Part shown: one piece after another, positions 1-15,997 of the stretch | Layout of the letters: the number at the start of each line of letters is the position of its first letter | Position numbering within the stretch: the first letter of the stretch is position 1 | Assembly: GCA_942492865.1 (NCBI GenBank) | Contig: OW818650.1 | Span: forward strand, 1,520,057 to 1,584,056 | Source of the DNA: an uncultured Bacteroidales bacterium | GTDB taxonomy: Bacteria > Bacteroidota > Bacteroidia > Bacteroidales > VadinHA17 | Direction: 5' to 3' | DNA length: 64,000 nucleotides | Notes under the pieces: generated by a model | What the model was told of the DNA's origin: nothing | The model's input: only the letters and a program-made list of their open reading frames with translations | Database searches by the model: none | Program-made: the position numbers and the translations under genes

Positions 1-2483
1 CCTTCTCCTGTTTCGGATGGTCTTTTCCTGCTTGAAAGATTTACTGATACACTATATGATCCACCTTCAGTTTCGCGAACTGTTTCAACATATATTATGT
101 CTAAAATCCCTTCAATTACTGCCAGTCCAAGATAATTTTCAGGCTTGTATTTCATTTCCTGTTCAAATGACAGGAAGACTGTCGCCTTCGGTATCGTGAG
201 GGGAAATGCTATCTTTTTGGTGATCTTACCCTCAGGCTGTTCTATTTTCCTGTCAATAAAATCTTCCTTACGTCCGGTTGAAGGAAGCGAACCTATATAT
301 TTTTCCACAACCGGGATCACTTTTTCCTGCTCAATATTTCCAACTATGAAAAAGTAAAACTCATCTGCATTCGCATACCTGTCGGCATGGATCTTTTTTA
401 TTTCATCAATAGCTACTCCTGAAATGGATTCCTTGTTTATCAGGGGGGTCCTTGGATTGTATCCGGTAGTTATCATCGAAATGCTGTCGCCTTTAATTTT
501 GTCAGGATCTTTATCCATGTTTGCATACTGTGCGGCAAATCGTCCAATGATAGCATTATGAGCCACGCTATCGAACCGCGGATTTGCAAAACGAAGATAA
601 AGGAGCTGCATCATCGTTTCGAAATCATCTGGGGTGGACGATCCCGCAATGCCTTCAGTTGTCTCGGTGAGAGAAAGGTTAACCGATGCTTTTTTCCCCG
701 AAAGCATTTTCTGAAGGGTGATATTATCATAATCTCCGGCACCATACATGGGGGTTACCGGTGAAAAGAGATAAGCAGGCATAACGAGATCCGTTTCAAG
801 CTTTGAAATTCCTCCGAAGCTGAATGCTGACAGCAGTACGTTATCCTTTTCATAATCGGCTTTCCTGTATATCACTTTTACATTATTTCCGAGAGTCCAT
901 TCGACGGCATTAAACTGTGGCAACTCTTTTTTACTGACAATTTTCGAACCTTTCAGTTCACCGCTTATCAACGATTCACCAAGTTCCGAATCTTCATAAG
1001 CTGGAAGCTCTGAATTTTTTACCCTGCCGATAATTTCCAGGGCTTTATCTTCCGTAAGGTGCGTTATCCCTTCTCCTTCAAGGCCCTGTACTACTATCGT
1101 CCTGTTTTCTTCACTCATAAGTTCTTTGAACTTTTCTGAGACTTCTTCAGTGGAAATACCTTCAATCACTTTTTTAAGGAATTCATAATCAAAATCTATT
1201 GAGGTCAGGGGTTCTCCATTAAGAAAAAATTCCTGGATACCGGCAACATACATATCATTATTGATCTTATCTTTTTGCTTCCAGGTGTTTTCATAATTTG
1301 AGAGCATTCTTGCCTTTGCACGTTCAAGCTCATTCTTGCTGAAGCCGAATCTCCTGGCACGCTCCGCCTCGGTATAGATGCCTTCAAGAGCAAGATCCTC
1401 CTCGTTCCTTCGTGCGTTTGCAGATATCGAAAAAGCATCGTAGCCTCTTGAATAATAGCCGCCGTAACTAACAGATCCTGAAATAAATGGTGCATTTCCC
1501 TGCTGCAGTAATTCATTGATCCTTGTATTGATCATAGAATTCATCAGATAAATGACATGGTTATTGCGGATATAACTTAAGTTTTTTTCAGCAGGTGGGA
1601 CAGATTTTCTCAGTGAAATAATATCAACTGAGGTTTCAGAGGCTTCTTTATCCGTGGCAAGAACAAAATAGGTCTCTTTGTGTGGAGGTACTGCCTCTAT
1701 GGTGCGAACGGGAGGATTTAATTCGGCCGGGATTTTTGAGAATAGTTCGGTTATTTTTGACTCAACTTCATCAACATTAATGTCGCCTACCACTGCAATG
1801 GCCTGTAGATCGGTCCTGTACCAGTCGTCGTAGAAACGCCTCAGTGTATTGTACTGGAAATTTTTAATAACATCTAGATCCCCAAGAATATTTCTCTCTG
1901 CATATTTTGAACCTTTTAAGACAACTGGTATAAACTGGAACAGCATGCGTCTCCATGCACTTAAACTGGTCCTGTATTCTTCTTCAATCACGCCTCTTTC
2001 AAGATCTATTTCTTTTTCATCAAGCTGAATAAAATCCGACCAGTCATGAAGTATCAGCAGGCAGGTATCTATAAGTCCCGGCGCTTCAACAGGCACATCT
2101 GAGAGATTGTAAACTGTTTCATCAAAAGAAGTGTATGCATTGATGTTCCTTCCGAATGCCACGCCATGTCTCTCGAGGCTGTGTATTAAAGAGTTTCCCG
2201 GAAAATGCCTGGTGCCATTGAAGGCCATGTGTTCAAGGAAGTGGGCAAGACCGTCCTGGTCATCGTCCTCGAGGATCGCTCCGACATTCTGTATTATATA
2301 AAAGCTTGCTCTTTTTTCAGGTTCCATGTTCCTCCTGATAAAATAAGTCAGTCCGTTGGAAAGCTTTCCCATCCTTATTTCAGGATCAATTGGCGCCTGG
2401 ATTTTCAGATCGTCCTGCGCATTTGTACGTAGTGCCGGAAGAAATGAAACAACAAAAATTATAAGATAACTAATTGCCTTCAT
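1..2483 (-). CDS. M16 family zinc protease (PqqL-like insulinase), 3' end runs off the window
   Basis: Not in the ORF track because it is open-ended. My minus-strand translation from ATG 2483 reads MKAISYLIIFVVSFLPALRTNAQDDLKIQAPIDPEIRMGKLSNGLTYFIRRN...GLAHFLEHMAFNGT (inverted zinc motif HxxEH), NAYTSFDETVY, IDLERGVIEEEYR. It has a signal peptide. The frame was spot-checked at 1201-1320 and is open there. Confidence 0.92.
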   Translation of the reverse strand, partial: MKAISYLIIFVVSFLPALRTNAQDDLKIQAPIDPEIRMGKLSNGLTYFIRRNMEPEKRASFYIIQNVGAILEDDDQDGLAHFLEHMAFNGTRHFPGNSLIHSLERHGVAFGRNINAYTSFDETVYNLSDVPVEAPGLIDTCLLILHDWSDFIQLDEKEIDLERGVIEEEYRTSLSAWRRMLFQFIPVVLKGSKYAERNILGDLDVIKNFQYNTLRRFYDDWYRTDLQAIAVVGDINVDEVESKITELFSKIPAELNPPVRTIEAVPPHKETYFVLATDKEASETSVDIISLRKSVPPAEKNLSYIRNNHVIYLMNSMINTRINELLQQGNAPFISGSVSYGGYYSRGYDAFSISANARRNEEDLALEGIYTEAERARRFGFSKNELERAKARMLSNYENTWKQKDKINNDMYVAGIQEFFLNGEPLTSIDFDYEFLKKVIEGISTEEVSEKFKELMSEENRTIVVQGLEGEGITHLTEDKALEIIGRVKNSELPAYEDSELGESLISGELKGSKIVSKKELPQFNAVEWTLGNNVKVIYRKADYEKDNVLLSAFSFGGISKLETDLVMPAYLFSPVTPMYGAGDYDNITLQKMLSGKKASVNLSLTETTEGIAGSSTPDDFETMMQLLYLRFANPRFDSVAHNAIIGRFAAQYANMDKDPDKIKGDSISMITTGYNPRTPLINKESISGVAIDEIKKIHADRYANADEFYFFIVGNIEQEKVIPVVEKYIGSLPSTGRKEDFIDRKIEQPEGKITKKIAFPLTIPKATVFLSFEQEMKYKPENYLGLAVIEGILDIIYVETVRETEGGSYSVSVNLSSRKRPSETGE

Positions 2484-2491
2484 TATTAATA

Positions 2492-3106
2492 TCAGAAAAG
2501 TCCGTGTAACTCTGCATTTATCTTGTCAATGACTTCACTCAGGTGATCACTGTTATTGGGGAAGTTGTAATGATCTGCCTCAATAATGAGCAATTTTCCG
2601 AGGTTATAGGTTTCAATCCAGGCTTCGTATCTCTCATTCAGTCTTTTAAGATAATCGATTCGGATAGAGCTTTCATATTCCCTTCCACGTTTCTGTATCT
2701 GGTTAACCAGTGTCGGAACGGAAGCCCTCAGGTAAAGCAAGAGATCGGGTGGTTGTACAAGTGAGCTCATCATCCTGAACAATGATGAATAATTCTCAAA
2801 GTCGCGTGTCGACATCAGGCCCATAGAGTGAAGGTTAGGCGCGAAAATATAGGCATCTTCATATATGGTGCGGTCCTGGATGATGGTTTCAGGTGATTTT
2901 TTTATTTCAATTATCTGGCTGAACCTGGAATTAAGAAAGAAGATCTGGAGATTAAAAGACCAGCGCTGCATATCCTCATAGAAATCGTTCAGGTAAGGAT
3001 TGTTCTCAATATCTTCATAGTGCGGTTTCCATCCGTAATGTTTTGCAAGGAGGCTGGTGAGCGTTGTTTTTCCCGATCCTATGTTTCCGGCAATTGCAAT
3101 ATGCAT
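2492..3106 (-). CDS. Deoxynucleoside kinase
   Basis: Walker A GNIGSGKTT, QDRTIYED motif, lid IQKRGREYE. Confidence 0.93.
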   Translation of the reverse strand: MHIAIAGNIGSGKTTLTSLLAKHYGWKPHYEDIENNPYLNDFYEDMQRWSFNLQIFFLNSRFSQIIEIKKSPETIIQDRTIYEDAYIFAPNLHSMGLMSTRDFENYSSLFRMMSSLVQPPDLLLYLRASVPTLVNQIQKRGREYESSIRIDYLKRLNERYEAWIETYNLGKLLIIEADHYNFPNNSDHLSEVIDKINAELHGLF

Positions 3107-3195
3107 AGTGTGTTAACTTTGGTTGATAAAAATACTAAAAGTTTAATTAAGGCTAAGAGCAGAAAAAAATAAAAGGTACAGCGATCAAATAATCC

Positions 3196-4731
3196 TCAGT
3201 TCTGCAATTCGGGTAATTTTATACCGGCAAACGGATAGAGTTCCTCGATAAATTCACGGTTATTTGACAATCGGGGTACTTTATTCTGCCCTCCAAGCTT
3301 GTTCTTTTGCCTGAGCCACGCATTGAAAGTTCCTTTGGGAACTGAGCGAACAACAGGTTTGGTAATGCTGATATCCTTGAATCTCTTTGCTTCATAATCG
3401 GAATTTACCGATTTCAGGAAATCATCAAGCTGCGTGGTAAACTTTTCAAGGCTTTCAGGTTCTGATTCAAACTCGATAAGCCATTCATGAGCGCCGCGTG
3501 AATTGTTATTCATGTAAATGGGGCCGGCAGTATATTCTGATATAACTGCTTGTGTAGCTTCACAGGCTTTATGAATGGCTTTGTCAGCATTGTCAATTAT
3601 TATCTCTTCACCAAAAGCATTTATAAAGTGCCTTGTTCTTCCGGATATCCTGAAACGATAAGGTTTAACAGAAGTGAATCTGATAGTATCACCAATCATG
3701 TATCTCCATAATCCACCGTTAGTAGAGATTACTATGGCATAATTTACTCCTGTTTCCACTTCTCCTATTGTGAAAGCAGCAGGGTTTGAAGCTCCCGCCT
3801 GATCGAGGGGAATGAATTCAAAGAAGATCCCATAATCGAGCATAAGAAGCATGTCGTCCCTTGCCGGGTCGTCCTGTATCCCGAAGAACCCTTCAGATGC
3901 ATTATAGGTTTCCATGTAACGCATCTGGGAACTGTTTATCAGGCTTCTGAACTGTTCACGGTAAGGTAAAAAGCTTATTCCTCCATGGAAAAAGACTTCA
4001 AGGTTCGGCCATACTTCAAGGAGGTTTGATTTTCCCGTGTATTTAAGGATATTTTTTAGCAGCACCAGGTTCCAGGAAGGAACTCCTGCAAAACTTGTGA
4101 CATTTTCGCTTACAGTTGACCTTGTTATTTTATCAAGTTTTTCCTCGAAATCTTCAATAAGGGCGATCTTCGGTTTTGGAATTCTTATAATTTCAACCCA
4201 GAAAGGAGCATTTTCGATTAAAATTGCTGAAAGATCACCATACAACGAATCATTGCTGAACTGATTTATTCTGTGGCTTCCTCCAAGTGTCAGGCTCTTT
4301 CCGCTGAATATCCTGGTCTGAGGGTTATTCGTCGCATAAATGGCAAGCAGATCTTTGGCACCACGGTAATGACATTCTTCGAGGGCCTCGCGGCTCATCG
4401 GAATGAATTTGCTCTTTGATGATGTTGTTCCTGAAGATTTGGCGAACCATTTTATCTCACCCGGCCAAAGAAGGTTTGTCTCTCCGTTACGCAATCTTTC
4501 GACATAAGGAACTATTTCTTCATATTGCTGGACCGGCATCCTTGACTGAAAATCTTTTATCGAAGAGACTGAGGAGTAGCGGTATTTTCTCCCCCATTCT
4601 GTATGGGACGCTTTTGCAAGAAGTTTATAGAGTGTTTCTTCCTGGGTTTCAACCGGAAATTTCTTAAACAGTTCAATCTGATTTAGTCTTTTAACATTCA
4701 GCCAATTTACGATAGAGGGTATTATGGACAT
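3196..4731 (-). CDS. GH3 auxin-responsive promoter family protein (acyl-adenylate/amido synthetase-like)
   Basis: SSGTT P-loop, YNASEGFFG, GLWRYMIGDT, GGQNKVPRL motifs typical of bacterial GH3. Confidence 0.9.
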   Translation of the reverse strand: MSIIPSIVNWLNVKRLNQIELFKKFPVETQEETLYKLLAKASHTEWGRKYRYSSVSSIKDFQSRMPVQQYEEIVPYVERLRNGETNLLWPGEIKWFAKSSGTTSSKSKFIPMSREALEECHYRGAKDLLAIYATNNPQTRIFSGKSLTLGGSHRINQFSNDSLYGDLSAILIENAPFWVEIIRIPKPKIALIEDFEEKLDKITRSTVSENVTSFAGVPSWNLVLLKNILKYTGKSNLLEVWPNLEVFFHGGISFLPYREQFRSLINSSQMRYMETYNASEGFFGIQDDPARDDMLLMLDYGIFFEFIPLDQAGASNPAAFTIGEVETGVNYAIVISTNGGLWRYMIGDTIRFTSVKPYRFRISGRTRHFINAFGEEIIIDNADKAIHKACEATQAVISEYTAGPIYMNNNSRGAHEWLIEFESEPESLEKFTTQLDDFLKSVNSDYEAKRFKDISITKPVVRSVPKGTFNAWLRQKNKLGGQNKVPRLSNNREFIEELYPFAGIKLPELQN

Positions 4732-4753
4732 CAGATTCAGACTTTATCTGGAG

Positions 4754-4761
4754 CAAAGATA
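4754..4761 (-). promoter_or_regulatory. Bacteroidetes sigmaA -7 element TATCTTTG upstream of the GH3 gene
   Basis: Matches TAnnTTTG, about 22 nt upstream of the ATG. Confidence 0.55.
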
Positions 4762-4791
4762 GATAAAAAATTCAGGGCCACTAAGTACAAT

Positions 4792-5517
4792 TTACCTGAA
4801 AACTTCTTTTAGGACCTCCAGTGATTTAAAATTTCTCAATCCGGGCAGGTGGATGGAATAGTATTTTAACAGTGTTTCCAGAATCTCGTTTCTTTCTGAC
4901 CCTGAAAGACTTATTATCTCTGTTTCATCAAATGAAGCTGCAAAGAATTCAGCAAGCTTTACCGAGATCTTTCTGTCAGCAAATTCCCCGTGAACTGGAG
5001 GCATCATTAAAAATATCCCGTTTTTCATATCGAAATACGGGTAAGAGGCACCGGCAGGAATTGTGGGTTCGAACCCCAGGAAACTGCTGAGCCCTGCAAG
5101 AAATGCAATATGGAAGTTTGCGAAGCCGGCCCTTTTCTTATCAAAATATATTATGGAATCTTCAATAAAATCGAAAAGTTCTGTGTTTGGAGTTTCTTCC
5201 TTTAATACTCCGTAAAGAAATTCTCCTAGGAATATTGCCACTGAGCTTTTCTTAATATCAGTATGAATGTCAGATGGGGCATACTCAACCGAAAATTCCT
5301 TAATCGTTTGCATGTTTCGCCCCTCCTTATGGTACATCTCCATGTTGAGTATGAACATTGGCTGAAAAAATACATTATGCTTACCTGATCTTTTATTTCT
5401 CATACCTTTAAGGAGGATGGTCTGCCGCCCGTATTCCCTTGTATAGAGATATACAATAATACCCGAATCAGAATACCTTATCTGATGTAGAACAATACCC
5501 CTCGTTTTGCCAAGCAT
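4792..5517 (-). CDS. recO: DNA repair protein RecO
   Basis: N-terminal OB fold (KTRGIVLHQIRYSDSGIIVYLYTREYG), C-terminal LLKYYSIHLP...SLEVL typical of Bacteroidetes RecO. Confidence 0.93.
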   Translation of the reverse strand: MLGKTRGIVLHQIRYSDSGIIVYLYTREYGRQTILLKGMRNKRSGKHNVFFQPMFILNMEMYHKEGRNMQTIKEFSVEYAPSDIHTDIKKSSVAIFLGEFLYGVLKEETPNTELFDFIEDSIIYFDKKRAGFANFHIAFLAGLSSFLGFEPTIPAGASYPYFDMKNGIFLMMPPVHGEFADRKISVKLAEFFAASFDETEIISLSGSERNEILETLLKYYSIHLPGLRNFKSLEVLKEVFR

Positions 5518-5571
5518 GGTTTCAGGTTTTTAATATCATAAAAATATTATATTTACGTAAATCAATTTCTA

Positions 5572-6954
5572 ATGGCACCGGCAAATAATGAGAAACTTGT
5601 AAAAACAATTGCCAGGCTGGCAAAGCAAAATAAGGAACTTGAAGAGAAGATAAAGATACTCAGTAAAGAGAATCAGAAACTTACGAGGGAGCATGAGAGG
5701 GTAAAAGCGCTTTATGATAAGATCTCTCCTGAAGATATCAAGGTACCTGACGAGGCCGGCAAAAAGGAGAAGTCTCTTAAATTCACGATGGCGACCGTCC
5801 TGTTCGCCGATATTCATGGTTTCTCAAAGATTGAGGATGACACCGATTCTTCGGCTCTGATGGATGAGCTCGATGTTATTATGTGGGAATTCAATTCCAT
5901 TGCAGAACATTATAAAATTGAAAAGATGAAAACAATTGGGGACACCTTCATGTGTGCAGGAGGGATACCCGTAAAGAATATTACCAATCCCATCGATGTT
6001 GTAATGGCTTCTCTGGAGATGATGAGGTGTCTGGAAAAGCATAACGGGCACGGAAGGTGGGAGCTTAAGATAGGTATTCACACCGGACCGGTGACAGCAA
6101 GCATTTCAGGAAAGAAAAAAACCAGCTATGACATTAAAGGCGATACAGTGAATACCGCCAGCCGCGTTGAAGCGGTTTCTGAGAAGAACTCGGTCCTGAT
6201 CTCGGTAATGACCTACGAGCTGGTAAAGGAATTTTTTGACTGCGAGTATTATGGTAAGCTTCCTGTAAAATACAAAGGCGATCTGCAGGTTTACAGAGTA
6301 CTTGGTCTTAAACCGGAGTTCTCTGATGACGGAATAACCCCAAATAAAAATTTCAGGATAAGGTTCGGGCTGATACAGTTTACTGACATACAGGAGGTGG
6401 TACTTGACAAGCTGGAAAGGGAGCTGCCCGATCAGTTATATTATCATAATGTGAAGCATACTGTTGATGTTGTAACTGAAGTGGAGCTTATTGGATGGGG
6501 AGAGGGCTGCACCGATGAAGAGATCCTTTATCTCAAGCTTGCAGGGTTATTTCACGATGCGGGCCATACTGTATCGTATGATGACCATGAATACCAGGGA
6601 ACACTCATTGCAGGGCAGATGCTTCCGGAATACAATTATTCTCCTGAACAGATTGAGAGGATTTGTTCGATCATAATGGCAACAAAGCTTCCGCCCAGGC
6701 CATCCAATCTTCTTGAAAGCATAATATGCGATTCTGATCTTGATTACCTTGGGAGAAGTGACTTTATCCCTGTTTCAAATAACCTTTATGAAGAGCTTAA
6801 GGCTAGGAATAAGATGAAATCCCTGAATGACTGGAATAAACTGCAGGTGAAATTCATTTCAGGTCACCAGTATTTTACCAACACCGCAAGAAGCCTCAGG
6901 GAAGTAAATAAGCAGCTTCAGATTGAGCGTATACAAAACCTGATAACCGATTGA
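5572..6954 (+). CDS. Soluble class III adenylate/guanylate cyclase with N-terminal coiled coil and C-terminal intact HD domain (cyclase A)
   Basis: Heptad-rich N-terminus. Cyclase motifs VLFADI, EKMKTIGD, YDIKGDTVNTASR. HD motifs YYHNVKH, LFHDAGH (HD at 6553-6558), DHE, ICDSDLDYLGR. No TM segment. Confidence 0.9.
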   Translation: MAPANNEKLVKTIARLAKQNKELEEKIKILSKENQKLTREHERVKALYDKISPEDIKVPDEAGKKEKSLKFTMATVLFADIHGFSKIEDDTDSSALMDELDVIMWEFNSIAEHYKIEKMKTIGDTFMCAGGIPVKNITNPIDVVMASLEMMRCLEKHNGHGRWELKIGIHTGPVTASISGKKKTSYDIKGDTVNTASRVEAVSEKNSVLISVMTYELVKEFFDCEYYGKLPVKYKGDLQVYRVLGLKPEFSDDGITPNKNFRIRFGLIQFTDIQEVVLDKLERELPDQLYYHNVKHTVDVVTEVELIGWGEGCTDEEILYLKLAGLFHDAGHTVSYDDHEYQGTLIAGQMLPEYNYSPEQIERICSIIMATKLPPRPSNLLESIICDSDLDYLGRSDFIPVSNNLYEELKARNKMKSLNDWNKLQVKFISGHQYFTNTARSLREVNKQLQIERIQNLITD

Positions 6955-6955
6955 T

Positions 6956-9238
6956 CTATTTAATAACAAGCATTTTGGTAACGATTGATTCCGTTCCGTC
7001 ATTACTTGCGCAGAAGATAAGATAGACCCCGGTTGCAACGCGTTTGCCGTTATAAGTTTTAAGGTCCCATGAAGCTTCTCCTCCTGTTGAAACGGTCTTA
7101 TAAACCAGATTCCCGCTTATATCGGTTATAGTTATGCTGGATTCTCTCATCAGGCCTGCTATTGTAACGTTTCCGGTAAAATCTTGTCTTACGGGATTAG
7201 GGAATGCATATACACCGGAAAACCGTTCTTTTCCTTCGGGTGCATCACCCCTGTATGATACAACTCCCTTTGTGGTTGCAAACCATACTATGCCTGTCTT
7301 GTTATCGGCTGCAAGCGATAGGATATCGTCCGAAAGGATAGGACTGTTCCTCTCATTGAAATGTCTCACTACGTTCACTCCGTCAGCCGAAAGCAGGTAT
7401 GCTCCGGAATTTTTTGTTCCAAGCCACTTCCTGTTCGCCCCGTCAACTGCAATGGAACGTATCGATTCAGTTGAAAGAACATAGTCAGCCAATCCCGATC
7501 CGTCATTTCTCGGAACCTTTATCCTTGAAGCCTTAAGGTCCTCATTAAAAACATTTTCGGAATTATAATATATGAGCGGTCCTTCATCGGTCCCGATCCA
7601 GATGTTTCCATCAAAATCCTCGGTTATCGTATGGGCCACCGGAATTATTTTGTTTTCCGTATCCCTGATGATCATCAGTTTTGACCTGTTGTTCCTGTCA
7701 TCAAGTACAAAGATGCCGGTTCCCCTTGGCAGCGTAATCCACTTATGCCCCAACCGGGTAATAATTAAGTCGCCGACAGTGGGAGATTCAATTGTAACTG
7801 GGTGAACAACCCATTCTGCCGTGAGACCGGGTTTCAGTACCTTGATGCTGCCCGGAACCTGTGTCTGTGTCATCCATAAATTTCCCGAAGGGTCGAAAGC
7901 CATTCCGCATATTCTTACATAATCCTGGTTTGGAATTATTGTCTGGAGAGGCGAATTTGTATAAGTATATCTTTTTTTAAGCTGGTTATTCTCATATTCG
8001 AGCAAACCTCCACCCCATGTCGCAACAAAAATGTGACCCGGATTCTTTGGATCAGCTATTGCCCTCATTGCATCGTGCAGTGTATCGGATGTGATAGCTG
8101 ACCAGTTATTGTTTTCATATACGGATACCTGTAATGGTTTTAATATCTGGGTCCAGCTGACATTTGCACCGCCGCCTGACAAAAGTACTTTACCATTATG
8201 GGCGTAAACATGGAAGATATCATTCGATATAGGGCCGGGAAGAGTAAGTGTGGTAAAATTGCCCGCGGCCTGGTATCTTATAAGCCCCGACTTGCTATCA
8301 GCAATCCATATTGTCCCGTTATCGGCAACTGCATTAGAGATAGCGGGTGTACCGGTCCCATAGCCGGCAATTGTTTCGAGCAACGCCCCCTGGTTGTTGT
8401 AATGCCTTACAGCTCCGGGGGAAGAGACAGTGAAGCCGTTGGATCCAATGTCAGGGTCGATGGAAACGTTCTTTAAACCCTGTGGATATGTGAATTGTGT
8501 TACATCAGGGTCCAGAACGAAAATTACATCGCCCGATGGTTCTGATCTGTTTGCATATATCCTGGAGCCGGCTGTCACTATTGATGTAAACCTGCCGCTA
8601 AGATTTACTTCAGTTGTCCAGCTTCCGTAATAGGAGAGTCCGGGATTTGAAATATCGGCTGTGTATATTCCTGTCTCGGTTGCAGCATATATCCGGTTAT
8701 TGAGAAAGGCAATGTCCCATGTTTCATTTTCCTGGATCCCGGGTCCTGGCTTCCATGTATCGCGGATCTCTTTCCTTGCTATATCGATAACCACTATTCC
8801 AAAGCTGCTCATCAGATAGGCATACTTTCCATAAGTCCTTATCCTGTTTATTATTTTGCGTCCGGGAATATATTTTCGGCTTATATCTGGAATATTAAAA
8901 AATGAATTTTCAATCAGGATATCAATATTGGTTGAAGTGTAAGCGATTATTAGAGCTTTATTCGCATCGGACCATGCAATGGTGCTGATACCTGTTTCGC
9001 TGAGGCCCGTGACTGGAGAGAGCTTTCTGAGTTCTGAAAATTCCTTGTTATATACCAGGATTGATGAACCAGTAGAGGCATAGACGTTTTCACCGGAAAC
9101 TGCAACATACTTTGCAGAGTTGTAAACAAGATGATCGGACCAGATTCCAACAGGGGTCTGCCCTTTTAAAAGCGGAAAGAGTGTTAGCAGAACTATTGTT
9201 AAATAATAATTTTTCATCAGGAGGATAACTGATCTCAC
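6956..9238 (-). CDS. porZ: PorZ-like beta-propeller protein with T9SS C-terminal sorting domain
   Basis: Signal peptide, GIWSDHLVY start, Reg_prop-like repeats (DGNIWIGTDEG, AVDGANRKWLGT), C-terminal VYAFPNPV...WD...G..VATGVYL CTD. Flanked by rdgB and recO. The symbol rests on resemblance. Confidence 0.78.
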   Translation of the reverse strand: MRSVILLMKNYYLTIVLLTLFPLLKGQTPVGIWSDHLVYNSAKYVAVSGENVYASTGSSILVYNKEFSELRKLSPVTGLSETGISTIAWSDANKALIIAYTSTNIDILIENSFFNIPDISRKYIPGRKIINRIRTYGKYAYLMSSFGIVVIDIARKEIRDTWKPGPGIQENETWDIAFLNNRIYAATETGIYTADISNPGLSYYGSWTTEVNLSGRFTSIVTAGSRIYANRSEPSGDVIFVLDPDVTQFTYPQGLKNVSIDPDIGSNGFTVSSPGAVRHYNNQGALLETIAGYGTGTPAISNAVADNGTIWIADSKSGLIRYQAAGNFTTLTLPGPISNDIFHVYAHNGKVLLSGGGANVSWTQILKPLQVSVYENNNWSAITSDTLHDAMRAIADPKNPGHIFVATWGGGLLEYENNQLKKRYTYTNSPLQTIIPNQDYVRICGMAFDPSGNLWMTQTQVPGSIKVLKPGLTAEWVVHPVTIESPTVGDLIITRLGHKWITLPRGTGIFVLDDRNNRSKLMIIRDTENKIIPVAHTITEDFDGNIWIGTDEGPLIYYNSENVFNEDLKASRIKVPRNDGSGLADYVLSTESIRSIAVDGANRKWLGTKNSGAYLLSADGVNVVRHFNERNSPILSDDILSLAADNKTGIVWFATTKGVVSYRGDAPEGKERFSGVYAFPNPVRQDFTGNVTIAGLMRESSITITDISGNLVYKTVSTGGEASWDLKTYNGKRVATGVYLIFCASNDGTESIVTKMLVIK

Positions 9239-9285
9239 GGGTAAATATACAGAATAACAGCGGGTGAAGAAGTTTTATTGTTGAG

Positions 9286-9864
9286 TCAGGCCTGTGATGA
9301 CAGAAACTCTCTTAATTTTTCGAAAGCCCGTGATCTGTGTGAAATGGTATTTTTTTCATCAAGGTCCATTTCGGCAAAAGTACGAGTCTGCCCCTCAGGG
9401 ACGAAAACCGCATCATATCCGAATCCATTACTGCCTTTCCTTTCAGCCGTGATCTCTCCCTTTACAATTCCTTCGAAAAGATATTCCCTGTCATTATAAA
9501 CAAGTGCTATCACGGTACGGAACCGTGCATTACGGTTTTTTATATTCTCAAGGAGGGAAAGAGCCTTCTCAATATTTGCATTTGAATCTTTGTTTTCGCC
9601 TGCAAAACGGGCCGATTTAACACCTGGTTTTCCTCCCAGAGCATCAATCTCCAGACCTGTGTCATCGGCAAAAACATTCATTCCGGTTATCCCGTGAATG
9701 AATTTTGCCTTAAACATGGCATTACCTTCAAGTGTAGGTTCATCTTCAGGAATATCTTCGGTGAAATTGATATTAGCAAGACTTACAAGGTCAAAGCTGC
9801 CTCCCAGAATATGCTTTATTTCTTTCAGCTTGTGATCGTTGTTGGTTGCAAAGATTATCTTCAT
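9286..9864 (-). CDS. rdgB: Non-canonical purine NTP pyrophosphatase (ITP/XTP/dITP)
   Basis: FATNNDHKL, DDTGLEIDALGGKPGVKSAR, GFGYD, SHR motifs. Confidence 0.96.
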   Translation of the reverse strand: MKIIFATNNDHKLKEIKHILGGSFDLVSLANINFTEDIPEDEPTLEGNAMFKAKFIHGITGMNVFADDTGLEIDALGGKPGVKSARFAGENKDSNANIEKALSLLENIKNRNARFRTVIALVYNDREYLFEGIVKGEITAERKGSNGFGYDAVFVPEGQTRTFAEMDLDEKNTISHRSRAFEKLREFLSSQA

Positions 9865-9965
9865 AAGATCTAAAGTATTTTAAAATAAATAGATATATTA
9901 AGCCTGGCTTATCGAAGCGGTCAAAAAAAATCTTTACAAAGGTTAGAAAAAGCAGGCATAATTGG

Positions 9966-9973
9966 TATTTTTG
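9966..9973 (+). promoter_or_regulatory. -7 element TATTTTTG upstream of cyclase B
   Basis: Matches TAnnTTTG, 22 nt before ATG 9996. Confidence 0.55.
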
Positions 9974-9995
9974 GATTAATTAAACAGGATATTTT

Positions 9996-11831
9996 ATGCA
10001 CAGTCCGATACGTGCAGTCTTTTTATTTTGCATTATTCTATCATTGCTGACCGGAAAATCATCATTTGCGGGTTCCCGGCATCAACATGAGATGTCGCTC
10101 GAAGGGATTATTCTTAACGGCGATTCCTTAATTTCAATAAGTGAAGGAACAAATGGTCCGGGCAGTGAAATGGTAATCGGTTATGATAACAATGATGTAA
10201 GATTTGAATTAAGTGCACCCGGCGATTATGAATTCCGCTACTTTCTTAAAGGATTTGATAAAAAAGATACCAAATGGCAGAATACAACCTATAAGGAATA
10301 CACCAACCTAAGGGCCGGGCATTATATTTTTCAGGTCAGTTCGCGTGATCAGGCAGGGAATGAAAAGGATTCGCTGTCATTTGAGTTTAGGGTTCTTCCT
10401 AAATGGTATTTTTCATATCCGGCAATAGTGATGTACCTGGTGCTGGCTTCTCTCATAGTATGGTCATTGTATAATTATCTGAGACTCAGGTTTGCAAAGG
10501 TACAGTACACTCTCGAACAAATCATTAACCAGCGAACCGAGGACCTGATACTTGCCAAGGAAAAAACAGAAGCTTTGCTGGCAAATGTGCTGCCGAAAGA
10601 TACTGCGCAGGAGCTCATGGCAAAAGGCAAAGCCACCAAGATTAAATACAATTTTGTTACGGTACTGTTTTCCGATATACAGGGATTCACCAAAATAGCT
10701 GAAGAGATGAATCCTGAAGTACTGATTGATGAACTTGATAAATTCTTTTTCCATTTTGATTCCGTTGTAGAAAAGTTTGGAATAGAAAAGATAAAGACTA
10801 TAGGTGACGCATACATGTGTGCAGGAGGTATCCCGGAGAAGAACAGGACCAATCCCATTGAAGTTATCCTGGCTGCAATTGAAATGCAGAATTACATGAA
10901 TGACCTCAAAGAAGCCTCAAAGCTGATAGGTATAAAATACTGGGATATACGCATAGGGATACATACGGGAACAGTGGTTGCAGGAGTTGTCGGACAAAAG
11001 AAACTATCCTACGATATCTGGGGAGATACAGTAAATACAGCCAGCAGGATGGAATCGGCAGGGGAGGCGGGTAAAATAAATATTTCCGGTACCACCTATG
11101 AATTCGTCAAGGAATTTTTTGTATGTGAACATCGCGGTAAAATGCCTGTCAAGTACAAAGGTGAGCTTGACATGTATTTTGTGGAAGGGATCATTCCGGG
11201 ATTGAGAGATGAAAAGGGAAATCCGAACAGGCAGTTCATGCTTAAGATGCAGCTCATAAAACTGCAGGACATAGAGGAGATCATCTCAAAATTATTTGAC
11301 GATGAGGCATCGCCGAACCTCTATTTCCATAATTCCTCACTTTTCAGAAATATTGTGAATTCTGTTGAAATCCTTTCAAACGCAGAAATCGTTTTTCTTG
11401 AAGATTACATAAACCTGAAGCTTGCATCTATATTCCTGCTGACAGGATTTATTTCCGACTATCATAAGCCAATGGAGGCTTCTCTCAGGCTTGTTGATGA
11501 GATCCTTCCAAAGTACGGGTTTGATGACAGAAATATTGAAGTAACTAAAAAGCTTATTTGCAATTCGTTCATGAATGTGCACGAATCATTGCAGGATAAG
11601 ATCCTGCACGATGCGCTATATGAGTATATGGGCCGGGTAGACTATATAAAACTGACTGAAAAGCTTCTAAGGGAGAGGGCCGAATACGGGATGATCTCTG
11701 ATAATAAAACATGGATCGAATCGCAGCAAAAGCAGCTTGCTGATCATAATTTTCTGACCGGGACCGCTAAATTGTTGAGAAGTAAATCAATTGAAGATCA
11801 GATCTCCGAACTTCAGTCAGCGGTTAAATAA
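9996..11831 (+). CDS. Membrane class III adenylate cyclase: signal peptide, Y_Y_Y domain, TM, coiled coil, cyclase, degenerate HD domain (cyclase B)
   Basis: Y_Y_Y-like FRYFLKGFD...YTNLRAGHYIFQV, TM AIVMYLVLASLIVWSL, canonical cyclase VLFSDI/EKIKTIGD/YDIWGDTVNTASR. The HD-like tail has the HD pair replaced by LL (11436-11441). Confidence 0.9.
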   Translation: MHSPIRAVFLFCIILSLLTGKSSFAGSRHQHEMSLEGIILNGDSLISISEGTNGPGSEMVIGYDNNDVRFELSAPGDYEFRYFLKGFDKKDTKWQNTTYKEYTNLRAGHYIFQVSSRDQAGNEKDSLSFEFRVLPKWYFSYPAIVMYLVLASLIVWSLYNYLRLRFAKVQYTLEQIINQRTEDLILAKEKTEALLANVLPKDTAQELMAKGKATKIKYNFVTVLFSDIQGFTKIAEEMNPEVLIDELDKFFFHFDSVVEKFGIEKIKTIGDAYMCAGGIPEKNRTNPIEVILAAIEMQNYMNDLKEASKLIGIKYWDIRIGIHTGTVVAGVVGQKKLSYDIWGDTVNTASRMESAGEAGKINISGTTYEFVKEFFVCEHRGKMPVKYKGELDMYFVEGIIPGLRDEKGNPNRQFMLKMQLIKLQDIEEIISKLFDDEASPNLYFHNSSLFRNIVNSVEILSNAEIVFLEDYINLKLASIFLLTGFISDYHKPMEASLRLVDEILPKYGFDDRNIEVTKKLICNSFMNVHESLQDKILHDALYEYMGRVDYIKLTEKLLRERAEYGMISDNKTWIESQQKQLADHNFLTGTAKLLRSKSIEDQISELQSAVK

Positions 11832-11875
11832 ATCCTTTTTCCTTCTGAAAGCAGATAATTTTAGTATTAAAAATG

Positions 11876-11883
11876 TACTTTTG
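11876..11883 (+). promoter_or_regulatory. -7 element TACTTTTG upstream of ilvE
   Basis: Matches TAnnTTTG, 26 nt before the ATG. Confidence 0.6.
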
Positions 11884-11909
11884 CGTATTCTTGATTTAAA
11901 GTATTTTAT

Positions 11910-12929
11910 ATGGAAAAGTTGGATTGGAAAAATCTGCCTTTTGGTTACATGAAGACAGATTATAATGTTCGTTGTATTTTTAAGAACGGTGAGTGGGGAA
12001 AGCTTGAAATATCCTCGTCGGAGTATATTGACATTCATATTGCATCAACAGCCCTGCATTATGGGCAGGAGGCATTTGAAGGTCTGAAAGCCTATATGGG
12101 CAAAGATGGGAAAATAAGACTCTTCAGATGGCAGCAAAATTCGAAAAGGCTGATCCATTCATCCGAAGGCATTAAGATGCCCGCTCTCCCTGAAGAAAGG
12201 TTTAAAGAGGCAATTACTAAAGTTATAGAATTAAACAAAAGATTCGTCCCGCCATACGGTTCGGGAGCAACACTTTATATCAGGCCATTGATGTTTGGAA
12301 GCGGAGCTGAAGTAGGTGTTAAACCGGCAACTGAATACACTTTCATCGTTTTCGTCACTCCGGTAGGCCCTTATTTTAAAGAAGGAGTCAAACCTGTGAA
12401 CATGATGATATGCAGGGAGTATGACAGGGCCGCTCCCCTGGGTACAGGGACATACAAGGTGGGAGGAAATTATGCAGCGAGCCTAAGAGCCATTGAAGCT
12501 GGTCATTCAGCAGGTTTTTCCAATGTTATTTTTCTTGATGCGAGAGAAAAGAAGTATGTTGACGAATGTGGGCCGGCCAACTTTTTTGGTATCAAGGATA
12601 ATACATATATAACACCTAAATCGGAATCCATACTCGGCTCCGTAACCAATATGAGCCTGATTGAGATTGCACAGAGCCTTGGCATGAAGACTGAACGCAG
12701 ACCGGTACCAGTGGAGGAGCTTGCAACTTTTACTGAAGCAGGAGCATGTGGAACAGCAGCAGTTATAAGCCCTATTGCAAAGATCTTTGATCCTCAGACC
12801 AACGCTGTTTATGAATATTGTAAAAACGGACAGACCGGAGAGGCCATAATGAAGCTTTATAATAAACTTGTTGCCATCCAGTGCGGTGATGCAACCGATG
12901 AATTCGGATGGATAACAATAGTTGAATAG
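11910..12929 (+). CDS. ilvE: Branched-chain amino acid aminotransferase
   Basis: LHYGQEAFEGLKAY, YIRP, KVGGNYAAS (PLP Lys), EAGACGTAAVISP. Confidence 0.96.
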   Translation: MEKLDWKNLPFGYMKTDYNVRCIFKNGEWGKLEISSSEYIDIHIASTALHYGQEAFEGLKAYMGKDGKIRLFRWQQNSKRLIHSSEGIKMPALPEERFKEAITKVIELNKRFVPPYGSGATLYIRPLMFGSGAEVGVKPATEYTFIVFVTPVGPYFKEGVKPVNMMICREYDRAAPLGTGTYKVGGNYAASLRAIEAGHSAGFSNVIFLDAREKKYVDECGPANFFGIKDNTYITPKSESILGSVTNMSLIEIAQSLGMKTERRPVPVEELATFTEAGACGTAAVISPIAKIFDPQTNAVYEYCKNGQTGEAIMKLYNKLVAIQCGDATDEFGWITIVE

Positions 12930-12970
12930 TAATCCCGGGAAAACCGGTCAAAGCGAAAACTCATAAGCTC

Positions 12971-13849
12971 TTGAAAGGAAAAGATACAGGTTTGTCAAAA
13001 GGGAAGTTAAGGAGCTCCTACCTTACGCTTGTAATAAGCGTATCGCTTGTGCTGTTCTTACTTGGCATTCTTGGCCTGGTGCTCATCAATGCAAAGGAAT
13101 TGTCAGAATATTTCAGAGAAAGCCTTTCATTTTCGGTTATGCTGGCCGACGATGCCAAGGAAGCTGACATAAGGATGCTTCAAAAAGACCTGGATGCAAA
13201 GAAATATGTAAAAGCGACCGACTACATTTCCAAAGAGGAAGCTGCAATTAAGATGAAAGATGAACTTGGAGAGGACTTCATCAGTTTTCTTGGAGACAAT
13301 CCCCTTCCTCCTTCCATTGATGTTTATCTGTATTCATCTTACACGCTTCCCGACAGTGTTGCCAAAATTGAAAAGTATATTCTGGAATATCCATTTGTAA
13401 AGGAAGTTTACTACCAGGAATCATTATTGTTCCTTATAAATGAAAATGTGAAAAAGATAAGCGTTTTCCTGCTGATAATAAGTTCATTCCTCTTCCTGAT
13501 TGCCCTTACCATCATTAATAACACAGTAAGGCTTGCAATCTACTCAAAGAGATTTCTGATCAGGACCATGCAGCTGGTTGGAGCTACCAAATCTTTCATA
13601 AGGAAACCTTTTCTTCTGCAGAGCGCCATACACGGACTTATTGCAGCACTTCTTGCAATGACTCTTCTTCTGGGCCTTCTTTACCTTATAGAAAAGGAAT
13701 TTTTCATGATGTTCACTTTTCAAAGTATTAATTCATTGCTCCTACTGGGTGCGTTTATTATAATGACCGGTGTATTGATCAATATTGTATCAACATTTTT
13801 TTCTGTTAACAGGTATTTAAGTATTTCAGAAGACGAACTTTATTATTGA
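12971..13849 (+). CDS. ftsX: Cell division permease FtsX
   Basis: N-terminal TM, DNPLPPSIDVYL, IRTMQLVGATKSFIRKPF, three C-terminal TMs. Confidence 0.93.
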   Translation: MKGKDTGLSKGKLRSSYLTLVISVSLVLFLLGILGLVLINAKELSEYFRESLSFSVMLADDAKEADIRMLQKDLDAKKYVKATDYISKEEAAIKMKDELGEDFISFLGDNPLPPSIDVYLYSSYTLPDSVAKIEKYILEYPFVKEVYYQESLLFLINENVKKISVFLLIISSFLFLIALTIINNTVRLAIYSKRFLIRTMQLVGATKSFIRKPFLLQSAIHGLIAALLAMTLLLGLLYLIEKEFFMMFTFQSINSLLLLGAFIIMTGVLINIVSTFFSVNRYLSISEDELYY

Positions 13850-13856
13850 AATTATT

Positions 13857-14117
13857 ATGGCCGCAAAAAATGAAAAAAAGGAAAAAATAAATTTTGCCCT
13901 TGGGCGGGAAAACTATAAGTTACTGGCTATAGGTTTTGCTATCATAGTTATCGGATTCCTTCTGATGCTTGGTGGTAAATCGGAAAGTCCGGATGTCTTC
14001 AGCGATGATATTTTCAGCTTCAGAAGAATTACATTGGCCCCGGTAGTTGTTCTTGCAGGTTTTGTCTTCGAAATATGGGCAATAATGAAGAAACCGAAAG
14101 ATCATTTAAGTGACTAA
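13857..14117 (+). CDS. DUF3098-like small membrane protein
   Basis: FALGRENYKLLAIG...FSFRRITLAP; conserved position after ftsX in Bacteroidetes. Confidence 0.85.
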   Translation: MAAKNEKKEKINFALGRENYKLLAIGFAIIVIGFLLMLGGKSESPDVFSDDIFSFRRITLAPVVVLAGFVFEIWAIMKKPKDHLSD

Positions 14118-14147
14118 AGTGACTAAAGTGACTAAAGTGACTAAAGT
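14108..14147. repeat. Tandem repeat (AAGTGACTA)x4 + AAGT, flanked by TCATTTAA direct repeats (14102-14109 and 14151-14158)
   Basis: Read directly from the sequence; overlaps the DUF3098 stop codon. Confidence 0.95.
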
Positions 14148-14190
14148 TGGTCATTTAATAAGATTTGCCTCACTATAGGCATTTTATTTA

Positions 14191-14901
14191 ATGGAAACTG
14201 AAATAAAAAGTATATATGAGGAGGGTCAGATCCTGCTATTTGATAAGCCGCTTTACTGGACCTCCTTCGATCTTGTCAATAAAGTAAGGCTGATAATCCG
14301 GAGCAATTTAGGGATCCGGAAAATTAAGGTAGGGCATGCCGGAACACTAGATCCGCTTGCCAGCGGTCTTATGATAATCTGCACAGGAAAATTCACAAAG
14401 AAAATTGACGAGTTCCGGGACCTTGACAAGGAGTACGTTTCAACAATTCACCTCGGAGAAACAACACCATCGTATGATCTTGAAACAGAAGTCGACGGTC
14501 ATTACCCTACAGAACATATTACCGAAGAGATTGTTAATAAGGTACTAATGGATTTCAAAGGCAAACAGGAACAAATACCTCCTCTACATTCGGCGAAGAT
14601 GATTGACGGGAAAAGGGCATACAGTTACGCAAGAAAAGGAATAGAAAGAGTGCTTGAACCTGTAACAGTATATTTTCATGATATTGAATTGCTTACGTTC
14701 GGCATCCCTGAAATTAAAGTAAGGCTGCGCTGCAGCAAAGGGACTTATATACGTTCTTTTGCAAAAGATTTCGGACAGGCTCTGAACAGCGGGGCATATT
14801 TATCAGGATTGATCAGGACTTCCATTGGCTCTTTCAAACTGAAAGATGCAATAACGATAGAAAAATTTGAGGAAAAACTCAAGGAAATGAAACAAATCTG
14901 A
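14191..14901 (+). CDS. truB: tRNA pseudouridine(55) synthase
   Basis: DKPLYWTSFD, KVGHAGTLDPLASG, CSKGTYIRS. Confidence 0.96.
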   Translation: METEIKSIYEEGQILLFDKPLYWTSFDLVNKVRLIIRSNLGIRKIKVGHAGTLDPLASGLMIICTGKFTKKIDEFRDLDKEYVSTIHLGETTPSYDLETEVDGHYPTEHITEEIVNKVLMDFKGKQEQIPPLHSAKMIDGKRAYSYARKGIERVLEPVTVYFHDIELLTFGIPEIKVRLRCSKGTYIRSFAKDFGQALNSGAYLSGLIRTSIGSFKLKDAITIEKFEEKLKEMKQI

Positions 14902-14947
14902 AAAATTTACGTATAACGGTTTCTTTTAATATAATTCTTTTAAAAAT

Positions 14948-15997
14948 ATGAAATTATCTCAATTCAAGTACACCTTGCCTCCGGATCTTATTGCTCTTTA
15001 CCCGTCAGATAACAGGGATGAGTCGCGTTTATTTGTAGTGGACAGGAAATCAGGAAAATTTGAGCACAGGATCTTTAAAGATATAACAGATTATTTCAGT
15101 GAGGACGATATACTTGTTTTTAATAATACTAAAGTTTTTCCTGCCCGGTTATATGGTAATAAGGAAAAGACAGGAGCTGAGATCGAAGTTTTTCTTTTAC
15201 GTGAACTGAACCGTGAGCAACGACTCTGGGACGTGCTTGTAGATCCGGCCAGGAAAATAAGGATCGGAAATAAACTCTATTTCGGCGAAGATGATCTGCT
15301 GGTGGCTGAGGTAATAGATAATACCACCTCGCGCGGCAGAACTCTGAGGTTTCTTTTTGACGGTTCATACGAGGAGTTCAAACAGACTCTTTACAGCCTC
15401 GGAAAAACTCCTCTGCCCAAATTCATAAACAGACCAGTGGAGCCCGAAGACAATGAAAGATATCAGACCATTTTTGCAAAGCACGAGGGAGCTGTTGCAG
15501 CACCTACAGCCGGACTTCACTTCAGCAGGGAGCTGCTGAAAAAGCTTGAGATAAAGGGAGTTGAATTTGCCGAGATAACACTCCACGTGGGACTTGGAAA
15601 TTTCAGGAGCGTCGATGTTGAAGATCTGACAAAGCATAAGGTTGATTCTGAAAGGATCATAATCAACGATAAAGCCGTTGATATAGTCAACAAGGCCAAA
15701 GACAGGAAGTCAAAGATCTGTGCCGTGGGGACAACCGTTGTCAGGACCCTCGAAAGCTCGGTCTCAACCGATGGCTATCTGAAACCCTACGATGGCTGGA
15801 CAAACAAGTTCATCTTTCCTCCATACGATTTCAAGGTTCCTGATATGATGATCAGCAATTTCCACCTGCCATATTCAACACTTCTTATGATGGTAGCCGC
15901 ATTCGGCGGTTTTGATCTGGTAATGGATGCCTATAAACATGCCATTAAAGAGAAATACAGATTCGGAACCTATGGCGATGCAATGCTTGTATTATAA
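14948..15997 (+). CDS. queA: S-adenosylmethionine:tRNA ribosyltransferase-isomerase
   Basis: [56 protein letters not shown]. Confidence 0.97.

Follow-up and report, generated by a model that had tools for sequence, protein, structure and literature searches.

The window analyzed here is a 64,000 nt stretch of contig OW818650.1 from an uncultured Bacteroidales bacterium (VadinHA17), and all coordinates are positions within it (table 1). It contains two open reading frames (ORFs), here referred to as genes A and B, each of which encodes a class III nucleotide cyclase-homology domain followed by a C-terminal domain related to HD hydrolases, and this report concerns their origin and the way in which synthesis and removal of a cyclic nucleotide may be divided between them. 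Both ORFs were found at exactly the coordinates given for them in an earlier note on this DNA, and the window holds no additional paralog of either gene.

Table 1. Features of genes A and B and of the genes between them
Feature	Position	Strand	Description or basis
Gene A	5572..6954	+	ORF, 460 aa, soluble: coiled coil, cyclase-homology domain, HD hydrolase domain
A, aa 1–70	5572..5781	+	Coiled coil and degenerate remnant of signaling helix/transducer element (ALYDKISP); aligns to B aa 165–220
A cyclase-homology domain	5782..6300	+	Six canonical residues present; arm altered (ASISG; W189K at nt 6136–6138)
A HD domain	6397..6951	+	Ligands H292, N293, H296, D299, H328, D329, H332, H339, E340, D387, D389, D391
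PorZ-like type IX secretion component	6956..9238	−	Pfam PorZ_N_b_propeller 1e-31 and Por_Secre_tail
Ham1/RdgB-type noncanonical NTP pyrophosphatase	9286..9864	−	Pfam Ham1p_like 5.5e-65
Gene B	9996..11831	+	ORF, 611 aa: membrane anchor, Y_Y_Y, transmembrane (TM) helix, signaling helix, cyclase, pseudo-HD
B signal/anchor (aa 1–26), periplasmic Y_Y_Y remnant (aa 73–133), TM helix (aa 137–162)	9996..10481	+	Hydrophobic segments, Pfam
B signaling helix, canonical transducer-like motif (ALLANVLPKDTAQELMAKGK)	10482..10643	+	Sequence
B canonical class III cyclase domain	10644..11189	+	D, K, D, D, W, N, R, K present; PF00211 2.2e-55
B pseudo-HD	11280..11828	+	Fold homolog without metal ligands: H→L, HD→LL at 11436–11441, H→F, HE→PM, D→L

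Protein A, which has more than 4,696 homologs at an e value of 1e-10 or less, matches the Pfam models Guanylate_cyc (PF00211, e value 3.7e-38, aa 71–243) and, above the cut-off, HD (PF01966, e value 1.1e-05, aa 295–389), and its N-terminus gives weak, noise-like matches to coiled-coil families. As the earlier note had stated, A lacks a sensor (no hydrophobic segment was found) and keeps all HD metal ligands, and the full ligand set is also present in 120/120 of its closest orthologs. In the cyclase-homology domain, the canonical residues D80, K120, D124, D187, N194, and R198 are all present, as is the lysine of the KxKG motif; D80 and D124 correspond to the C1-type metal aspartates and K120, D187, N194, and R198 to the C2-type residues, a mapping that is backed by alignment to both halves (C1 and C2) of AC9. 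The PDB matches of the cyclase domains are AC9, AC5, and Rv1625c-type enzymes. The β4–β5 arm of A reads ASISG...YDIKG in place of AGVVG...YDIWG (aa 176 and 186), and the helix motif that precedes the cyclase domain reads ALYDKISP versus ALLANVLP (LYDKISP at aa 47). The conserved arm aromatic is thereby replaced by Lys189 in A, whereas B has the Trp, which is kept by both C1 and C2 of mammalian AC9 and which we take to lie at the C1/C2 interface beside the purine pocket. All of the 120 closest A orthologs carry the arm Lys, and 108 of 118 fused relatives carry the arm Trp. The deviations listed in the earlier note (YDIKG, ASISG, and LYDKISP) are thus present, but none of them touches any of the six canonical catalytic residues, and judged by these residues the cyclase "decay" of A in the window strain is confined to the arm (W189K, AGVVG→ASISG) and the transducer element. 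The six residues are complete in 115 of the 120 closest A orthologs, the other five carrying a catalytic substitution; we discarded this conservation as a sign of activity because the cyclase domains of these orthologs are 87% identical to one another, with at least 95% conservation in 69% of the columns.

Protein B matches Y_Y_Y (e value 3.1e-10, aa 73–133) and Guanylate_cyc (e value 2.2e-55, aa 217–398), and its C-terminus has no match to HD (PF01966) in Pfam. Pfam and hydrophobicity analyses bear out its earlier description as a protein with a signal or anchor segment, Y_Y_Y, a TM helix, and a canonical cyclase. The catalytic pattern D-K-D-D-W-N-R-K is found in 120/120 of the closest B orthologs (66–82% identity), and the canonical pattern is found as well in 19/19 of the B partners that are linked to A-type genes. 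An alignment restricted to the C-terminal domains of A and B covers 175 aa at 26% identity and has a single gap of one residue (e value 2e-18), which rules out that the C-terminus of B is unrelated filler; by this comparison it is a true HD homolog, and hence a pseudo-HD domain. At the ligand positions of A (H292 to D391) it has H, N, L, N, L, L, F, P, M, D, L, and E, so that HN and one Asp are retained and the H...HD...D ligand set is absent. The substitutions HD→LL at nt 11436–11441, KH→SL, and HE→PM were confirmed exactly as first described, and GH→GF is present in addition. They are not unique to this strain, the HD domain being dead in 120/120 of the closest B orthologs (H→L/M, HD→LL/LF, HE→PM), among which 42% of the pseudo-HD columns are at least 95% conserved and many polar residues are invariant. 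Over their common length of 450 aa, A and B are 37% identical (e value 3e-98), and the alignment spans the pre-cyclase helix, the linker, and the whole C-terminal domain; the two are paralogs with a common cyclase–linker–HD architecture, as had been proposed.

The origin of the pair is indicated by related genomes, whose loci are cited here by number. At the position of B, after Ham1, a single cyclase–HD gene is present in sister Bacteroidales (L006, L007, L008, and L018) and in Marinilabiliales (L010 and L011), and in L018 it is followed by the gene for a branched-chain aminotransferase (BCAT). The RecO–PorZ interval, which is spanned in L006, L007, and L018, holds no cyclase homolog in any of these three loci, and recO and porZ abut in L007 and L018. 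In Pfam, the L006 protein comprises Reg_prop, Y_Y_Y, Guanylate_cyc, and HD, and the L010 protein Y_Y_Y, Guanylate_cyc, and HD. The HD ligands are intact in L006, L007, L008, L010, and L011 and dead in L018. An exhaustive search with a profile of the C-terminal domain collected 3,673 clusters (50% identity) at an e value of 1e-3 or less, dominated by long forms of ~1,200–1,300 aa with the architecture sensor–cyclase–HD. In most of the best 150 representatives the HD domain lies C-terminal to a cyclase, and 54 of them exceed 1,100 aa and combine a canonical cyclase with an intact HD domain, which is the commonest architecture. On this comparative evidence, A and B descend from one sensor–cyclase–HD gene, of which B is the positional heir and A a copy inserted between recO and porZ, and the ancestral enzyme is likely to have both synthesized and degraded a cyclic nucleotide as a signal. 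Seven more distant paired loci (L094, L105, L107, L112, L119, L128, and L155), at which the A proteins are 66–72% and the B proteins 47–55% identical to those of the window, encode B proteins that keep the H..HD..D core and have lost only flanking acidic residues; because the core is kept there, the death of the HD domain in B appears to postdate the duplication.

Two side observations concern these single-gene loci. L006 has a ~2.2-kb gap between RecO and PorZ (1510–3729) without a cyclase homolog at an e value less than 1e-10. The single gene of L018 (7452–11009) encodes a 1,186-aa long form at the position of B with a canonical cyclase and a dead HD domain (H-T-Y-Q-I-P...), and its N-terminal 790 residues match neither Reg_prop nor Y_Y_Y in Pfam (e value 0.001 or less).

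Complementary decay was followed in a set of 88 A-type sequences drawn from 160 pooled loci, which lack the arm Trp and a long N-terminus and have an intact HD core. The arm Trp is absent in 88/88, a trait that partly defines the set. All six cyclase residues are kept in 21 of the 88. The first metal Asp (D1) is noncanonical in 54, with at least 12 changes on a neighbor-joining (NJ) tree, the specificity Asp (D3) in 35 (at least six changes), the substrate Lys in 11 (at least seven changes), and the transition-state Asn in four (at least two changes), whereas the second metal Asp (D2) and the Arg are noncanonical in none (zero changes each). The commonest decayed pattern is NKDDKNRK, in which the first metal Asp alone is changed. 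Because decayed A-types served as the query for the metagenome loci, the set overstates the fraction of decayed cyclases, whereas the recurrence of loss is unaffected. No A-type relative with a dead HD domain was found in the locus listings, the set of 88 itself having been selected for an intact HD core. Seven of eight other A-type genes from GTDB representative genomes likewise carry a substituted catalytic residue, and the partner B is canonical every time. The substitutions are D1→S in L002, D3→E in L003, D1→N and K2→Y in L004, K→H and K2→T in L027, N→H in L031 and L042, and K→R and K2→T in L038. More distant relatives, 43–58% identical to A, have cyclase domains that are fully degenerate, reading E-K-D-E, S-S-D-M, or V-T-D-T at D1, K, D2, and D3, beside a near-invariant HD domain.

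Regional identities, averaged over the 21 pairwise comparisons among seven species with both A and B, follow the same division. In A they amount to 51% for the coil, 72% for the cyclase, and 80% for the HD domain, so that the HD domain is the best and the coil the least conserved region; in B they amount to 30% for the sensor, 68% for the helix, 85% for the cyclase, and 49% for the pseudo-HD domain. Taken together, these comparisons indicate that complementary decay of A and B is a trait of the family. The proposal that B senses has fared less well, the periplasmic part being the least conserved of B and entirely lost at six partner loci, where Y_Y_Y is gone and the membrane anchor is kept as a bare membrane hairpin. 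The B-type genes of these loci (L029, L030, L031, L042, L128, and L146) encode 107–151 residues before the cyclase, with one or two hydrophobic segments. Among the relatives of A, an 829-aa protein (P0247) has an A-like C-terminal half (51% identical) with a decayed cyclase (E-N-D-E) and an intact HD domain, preceded by ~360 extra N-terminal residues.

A and B are separate transcription units that flank two opposite-strand genes, recO is divergent from A, and B is followed by the BCAT gene and then ftsX. The gene order dNK–GH3–RecO–A–PorZ–Ham1–B–BCAT–FtsX–TruB–QueA is found in six species-level genomes (L001, L002, L027, L031, L038, and L042), and the order RecO–A–PorZ–Ham1–B–BCAT in 14 metagenome contigs that reach B. 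A PorZ-like gene sits between A and B at every paired locus, and Ham1 is kept upstream of B and also upstream of the single long-form gene; the PorZ-like gene is a synteny marker outside the module, and the Ham1/RdgB gene is a synteny marker as well. With respect to the co-occurrence on which the earlier note had let its proposal depend, A and B are linked at ~3 kb in 19 of the 38 A-type loci with enough downstream sequence, but the other 19, all of which have a noncanonical cyclase, are not followed by a cyclase gene in the downstream sequence that was fetched (at least 6 kb).

On balance we think it probable, if only just, that A and B are subfunctionalized duplicates of one bifunctional membrane enzyme and act as separate dimers on a shared cyclic-nucleotide pool. 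We reach this reading because a single long gene occupies the position of B in sister Bacteroidales, and both single-copy relatives with the two activities' domains at the same locus and reciprocal degeneration of the domains were found. Comparison shows an ancestral gene that encoded a Reg_prop/Y_Y_Y sensor for the periplasm and, after a TM helix, a class III cyclase and an HD hydrolase; it survives as a single gene at the position of B in sister Bacteroidales and Marinilabiliales. B stayed at the ancestral position, keeping the anchor, the signaling helix, and a canonical ATP-type cyclase and losing the HD metal ligands, and would now be a cAMP-making homodimer; ATP is its predicted substrate because of the Lys/Asp pair. 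Its pseudo-HD domain may be a folded domain under constraint with a structural or allosteric role, and appears to be maintained because many of its polar residues are invariant in the 120 orthologs. A, once inserted between recO and porZ, lost the sensor and the TM helix, exchanged the arm Trp for Lys, changed the transducer, and kept the HD domain, and its role would be to remove the messenger in the cytosol. The cyclase-homology domain of A may serve as a dimerization module or as a nucleotide-binding regulatory module, weakly active at most in the window strain and catalytically dead in most relatives. A and B would then set the "off" and "on" rates of one cyclic-nucleotide pool without contact, as SpoT and RelA do for (p)ppGpp.

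A parallel is found in the long RSH enzymes of Gammaproteobacteria. There, a bifunctional HD and synthetase ancestor was duplicated; RelA, with a dead HD domain and an active synthetase, resembles B, and SpoT, with an active HD domain and a weak synthetase, resembles A, the two acting on a shared (p)ppGpp pool. The differences are that the synthetase of RelA and SpoT is of the nucleotidyltransferase type and makes (p)ppGpp, whereas a class III cyclase and a cyclic nucleoside monophosphate (cNMP) are concerned here, that the domain order is reversed, and that the B-type copy is membrane anchored. A second parallel is provided by GGDEF–EAL and GGDEF–HD-GYP composite proteins, in which synthase and hydrolase for one messenger lie on one polypeptide, one of them is often degenerate, and nucleotide binding can be allosteric, although messenger and folds are different. 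In Caulobacter PdeA, a degenerate GGDEF domain binds GTP and activates the EAL domain, and such reuse of degenerate domains is the model that we propose for the cyclase-homology domain of A and the pseudo-HD domain of B. The sensor has its own counterpart in the hybrid two-component sensors of Bacteroides, since their Reg_prop and Y_Y_Y module is also present in the long single-gene relatives and, reduced to its membrane-proximal Y_Y_Y part, in B; the output of those sensors is a kinase, a receiver, and AraC, whereas it is cyclase–HD here, and B is without the ligand-binding propellers.

Besides the inflated fraction of decayed cyclases mentioned above, several points weigh against subfunctionalized duplicates acting separately. 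The window A has all six cyclase residues and may be an active cyclase still. If the A cyclase were a structural relic and nothing more, the selective retention of its Asn, Arg, and Lys would go unexplained. Finally, A and B take different positions in NJ trees depending on whether these were built from the cyclase domain, from the HD domain, or from the two combined, and the trees give no order of duplication and domain loss because the accelerated domain pulls its clade outward. Distorted in this way by each accelerated domain, the trees were set aside for dating the duplication relative to the loss of the HD domain.

The subfunctionalization reading depends further on the substrate of the HD domain. 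In A, this domain has the H...HD...D ligand set within a YHNxxH...HDxxH motif like that of phosphodiesterases (PDEs). Single-sequence comparison with PDB sequences gave no match for the HD domain of A or the pseudo-HD domain of B even at an e value of 10 or less, and NCBIfam offers no meaningful family for A or B. A profile of 13 HD sequences matched 2pq7 (e value 3e-08), Escherichia coli YedJ (9.4e-07), the Cas10 HD domain (1.6e-05), and, over the HNxxH..HD stretch only, PDE9A (~7e-04), and also an HD-GYP protein and YpgQ. The AF2 model of the domain is helical with a mean pLDDT of 94, and Foldseek gave 2pq7 as its best match, followed by dozens of PDE5, PDE4, PDE9, PDE6, and PDE2 domains (TMq 0.56–0.67, e value ~1e-3) that are interleaved with the equally good small HD hydrolases YpgQ, 2pjq, and 3dto. 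The nearest known structures by profile and fold are 2pq7, YedJ (3gw7), YpgQ (5dqv), and class I PDEs, the last of which have the H..HD..D site and HNxxH in common with the domain of A, but the e values are only 1e-3 to 1e-8 and the class I PDE domain is ~100 residues longer (~240 aa). From sequence and model, the domain of A falls among small HD hydrolases with a PDE-like metal site, which does not fix its substrate. Fusion, gene neighborhood, motif, and fold suggest that it would hydrolyze 3',5'-cAMP.

The alternative that the domain is not a 3',5'-cNMP phosphodiesterase and acts instead on a different substrate, such as NTPs (the substrate class of YpgQ), 2',3'-cNMPs, or another signaling nucleotide, linear or not, in which case the pair would be no cAMP on/off module, strikes us as unlikely, and the evidence for it at the same time counts against the reading we favor. 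By both sequence and fold, the domain is matched no worse by 2pq7, YedJ, and YpgQ than by PDEs; YpgQ acts as an NTP pyrophosphohydrolase, whereas 2pq7 and YedJ are without a known substrate. The Pfam model PDEase_I (PF00233) matches the YHNxxH..HD stretch of A below threshold (e value 0.0075; 16.4 bits versus a gathering threshold of 24.8 bits) and at profile positions 1–47 only. Homologs that consist of the HD domain alone (~195 aa; at least 7,676 proteins, with generic names only) are found as well; of four such loci picked from the hit list, two have no cyclic-nucleotide gene within 5 kb, and at three of the four the HD gene is followed by a YitT/DUF2179 gene rather than a cyclase gene. Opposed to this are the pervasive fusion of the domain to class III cyclases, the PDE-type YHNxxH in its N-terminal motif, the many class I PDE structures among the Foldseek matches, and stand-alone homologs that adjoin cyclase genes (L033, L036, L048, L056, L058, and L080), lie divergent from a TPR–cyclase gene (L163), or adjoin a gene for a cNMP-binding protein.

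Class III cyclases are head-to-tail dimers with composite active sites, and the heterodimer of A and B that the earlier note had proposed has also to be considered. Here it is taken as a pairing of the cyclase domains, to which B would contribute the anchor and two metal aspartates; A would complete the site in trans with Lys, Asp, Asn, and Arg and would bring the one HD domain that still works, so that one complex makes and breaks the messenger. A C2-like course of decay in A speaks for such an arrangement, the first metal Asp being lost in 54/88 (at least 12 events) and Asn, Arg, and Lys kept in 84/88, 88/88, and 77/88, respectively, with NKDDKNRK the commonest decayed pattern; in addition, the arm, a dimer-interface element, is remodeled in every A-type sequence seen, the ~3-kb spacing of the genes is stable in 19 loci, and A and B together reconstitute the domain set of the ancestor. 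There is also a precedent in the neighboring duplicated class III cyclases NeoR and RGC of chytrids, which became obligate heterodimers with specificity residing in the cyclase domain (PMC10622942). We nevertheless consider a heterodimer of A and B improbable. The catalytic residues of B are complete in 120/120 orthologs and 19/19 partners, so that two copies of B suffice for a complete active site. A reciprocal loss in which each partner is deprived of one catalytic half, as in mammalian C1/C2 or soluble guanylyl cyclase (sGC) α/β, was not found, the window A being complete as well. Although the heterodimeric cyclases (C1/C2, sGC α/β, and NeoR/RGC) also arose by duplication and have one catalytically incomplete partner, and the chytrid genes too are neighbors, complementary halves are lost there or one partner is inactive alone, whereas B is complete here and the losses of A vary by lineage and affect now one half of the site, now the other (K→H/R, N→H, D→E, and the metal Asp). 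Half of the 38 A-types have no cyclase gene in the fetched downstream sequence, and L018 encodes a long form with a dead HD domain and has no A gene at the A position. Pairing would also leave the single TM helix and the signaling helix of B without a counterpart, A having no TM helix and a degenerate transducer, and the two genes belong to separate transcription units with two opposite-strand genes between them. The asymmetric loss in A fits a noncatalytic ATP-binding site in an A homodimer equally well as a C2-like subunit.

Somewhat further from our expectation is that A is a self-contained soluble bifunctional cyclase/hydrolase homodimer, regulated by its coiled coil and independent of B. 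The six catalytic residues in the window A and in 115/120 of its closest orthologs are consistent with this, as is the intact HD domain, and the combination is viable, given that a canonical cyclase occurs together with an intact HD domain in the long forms that make up 54/150 of the top representatives. However, the 120 orthologs are too similar to each other for residue conservation to tell, a catalytic residue is substituted in seven of eight species-level relatives, the arm Trp that both AC9 halves keep is missing from every A-type sequence, and the A cyclase evolves faster than that of B (72% vs. 85% identity). Rather improbable, too, is the strongest form of the heterodimer proposal, a single membrane complex that both writes and erases cAMP, in which the C2-like domain of A would complete one site with B and supply the only live hydrolase, the pseudo-HD domain of B would dock onto or regulate the HD domain of A, and a bacterial class III cyclase and a PDE-like HD domain for the same cNMP would for the first time be found in one protein.

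Should the HD domain prove to be a cAMP or cGMP phosphodiesterase, it would represent a large unrecognized family of bacterial PDEs akin to class I of eukaryotes. The long forms would then both make and break the messenger under control of their sensors, and A and B would constitute a natural experiment in subfunctionalization that parallels RelA/SpoT and whose intermediates are alive in related genomes. New allosteric nucleotide sensors may be found among the pseudo-cyclase and pseudo-HD domains. Little of the cyclic-nucleotide signaling of Bacteroidota has been mapped. Thousands of A-type proteins exist, and likewise thousands of B-type proteins. To our knowledge, no cyclase–PDE fusion for cAMP or cGMP is known from bacteria. 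The literature searched contains no description of the cyclase–HD fusion, of the A/B pair, or of such cAMP enzymes in Bacteroidota; the census papers examined do not mention the fusion, and database names are at the level of domains ("class 3 adenylate cyclase/HD superfamily phosphodiesterase" and "HD domain-containing protein"). The logic of a bifunctional make-and-break enzyme, subfunctionalized duplicates, and pseudo-enzyme domains is known for other messengers, and we did not find it described for the putative combination of a class III cyclase with an HD hydrolase.

Some further observations concern the surroundings of these genes. A collinear housekeeping block (deoxynucleoside kinase, GH3-family protein, RecO, PorZ, Ham1, BCAT, FtsX, TruB, and QueA) extends over 2492–15997 of the window and is shared with L001, L002, L018, L027, L031, L038, and L042; in L018, the GH3 and kinase genes are relocated 3' of QueA. 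In L003 (9650–13297), the A gene follows RecO and two minus-strand ORFs (396 and 320 aa) are present instead of PorZ. The A-type gene of L004 (9995–11389; 62% identical, N-K-D-D..Y) lies in an unrelated neighborhood without a cyclase within 10 kb. L005 (1049–3611) encodes an A-like protein of 478 aa without a sensor but with the arm Lys, the six canonical residues, and an intact HD domain directly upstream of BCAT, which is the position of B; this reflects either loss of the sensor in situ in this lineage or a rearrangement of the pair. A scan of 5400–12000 of the window for sigma-70 promoters and terminators gave 21 promoter-like and nine terminator-like sites, little different from the means of 16.4 and 6.0 in shuffled sequence, Bacteroidota promoters being outside the model.

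Stand-alone HD genes are found in several settings. In Taibaiella koreensis (L033, 2197–11284), four tandem class III cyclase genes (675–784 aa, without HD) are followed by a gene for a 199-aa HD protein with an intact motif. In Larkinella terrae (L161, 5001–8820), the HD gene overlaps tail to tail with a gene for a 1,081-aa protein with HEAT and cNMP_binding domains, which may be an effector linked to the HD family. At three of the four loci mentioned above (L162, 5592–6467; L163, 5590–6462; and L164, 5592–6479), a gene for a ~290-aa YitT_membrane/DUF2179 protein begins within 10 bases 3' of the HD gene, and the two look like a conserved two-gene unit.

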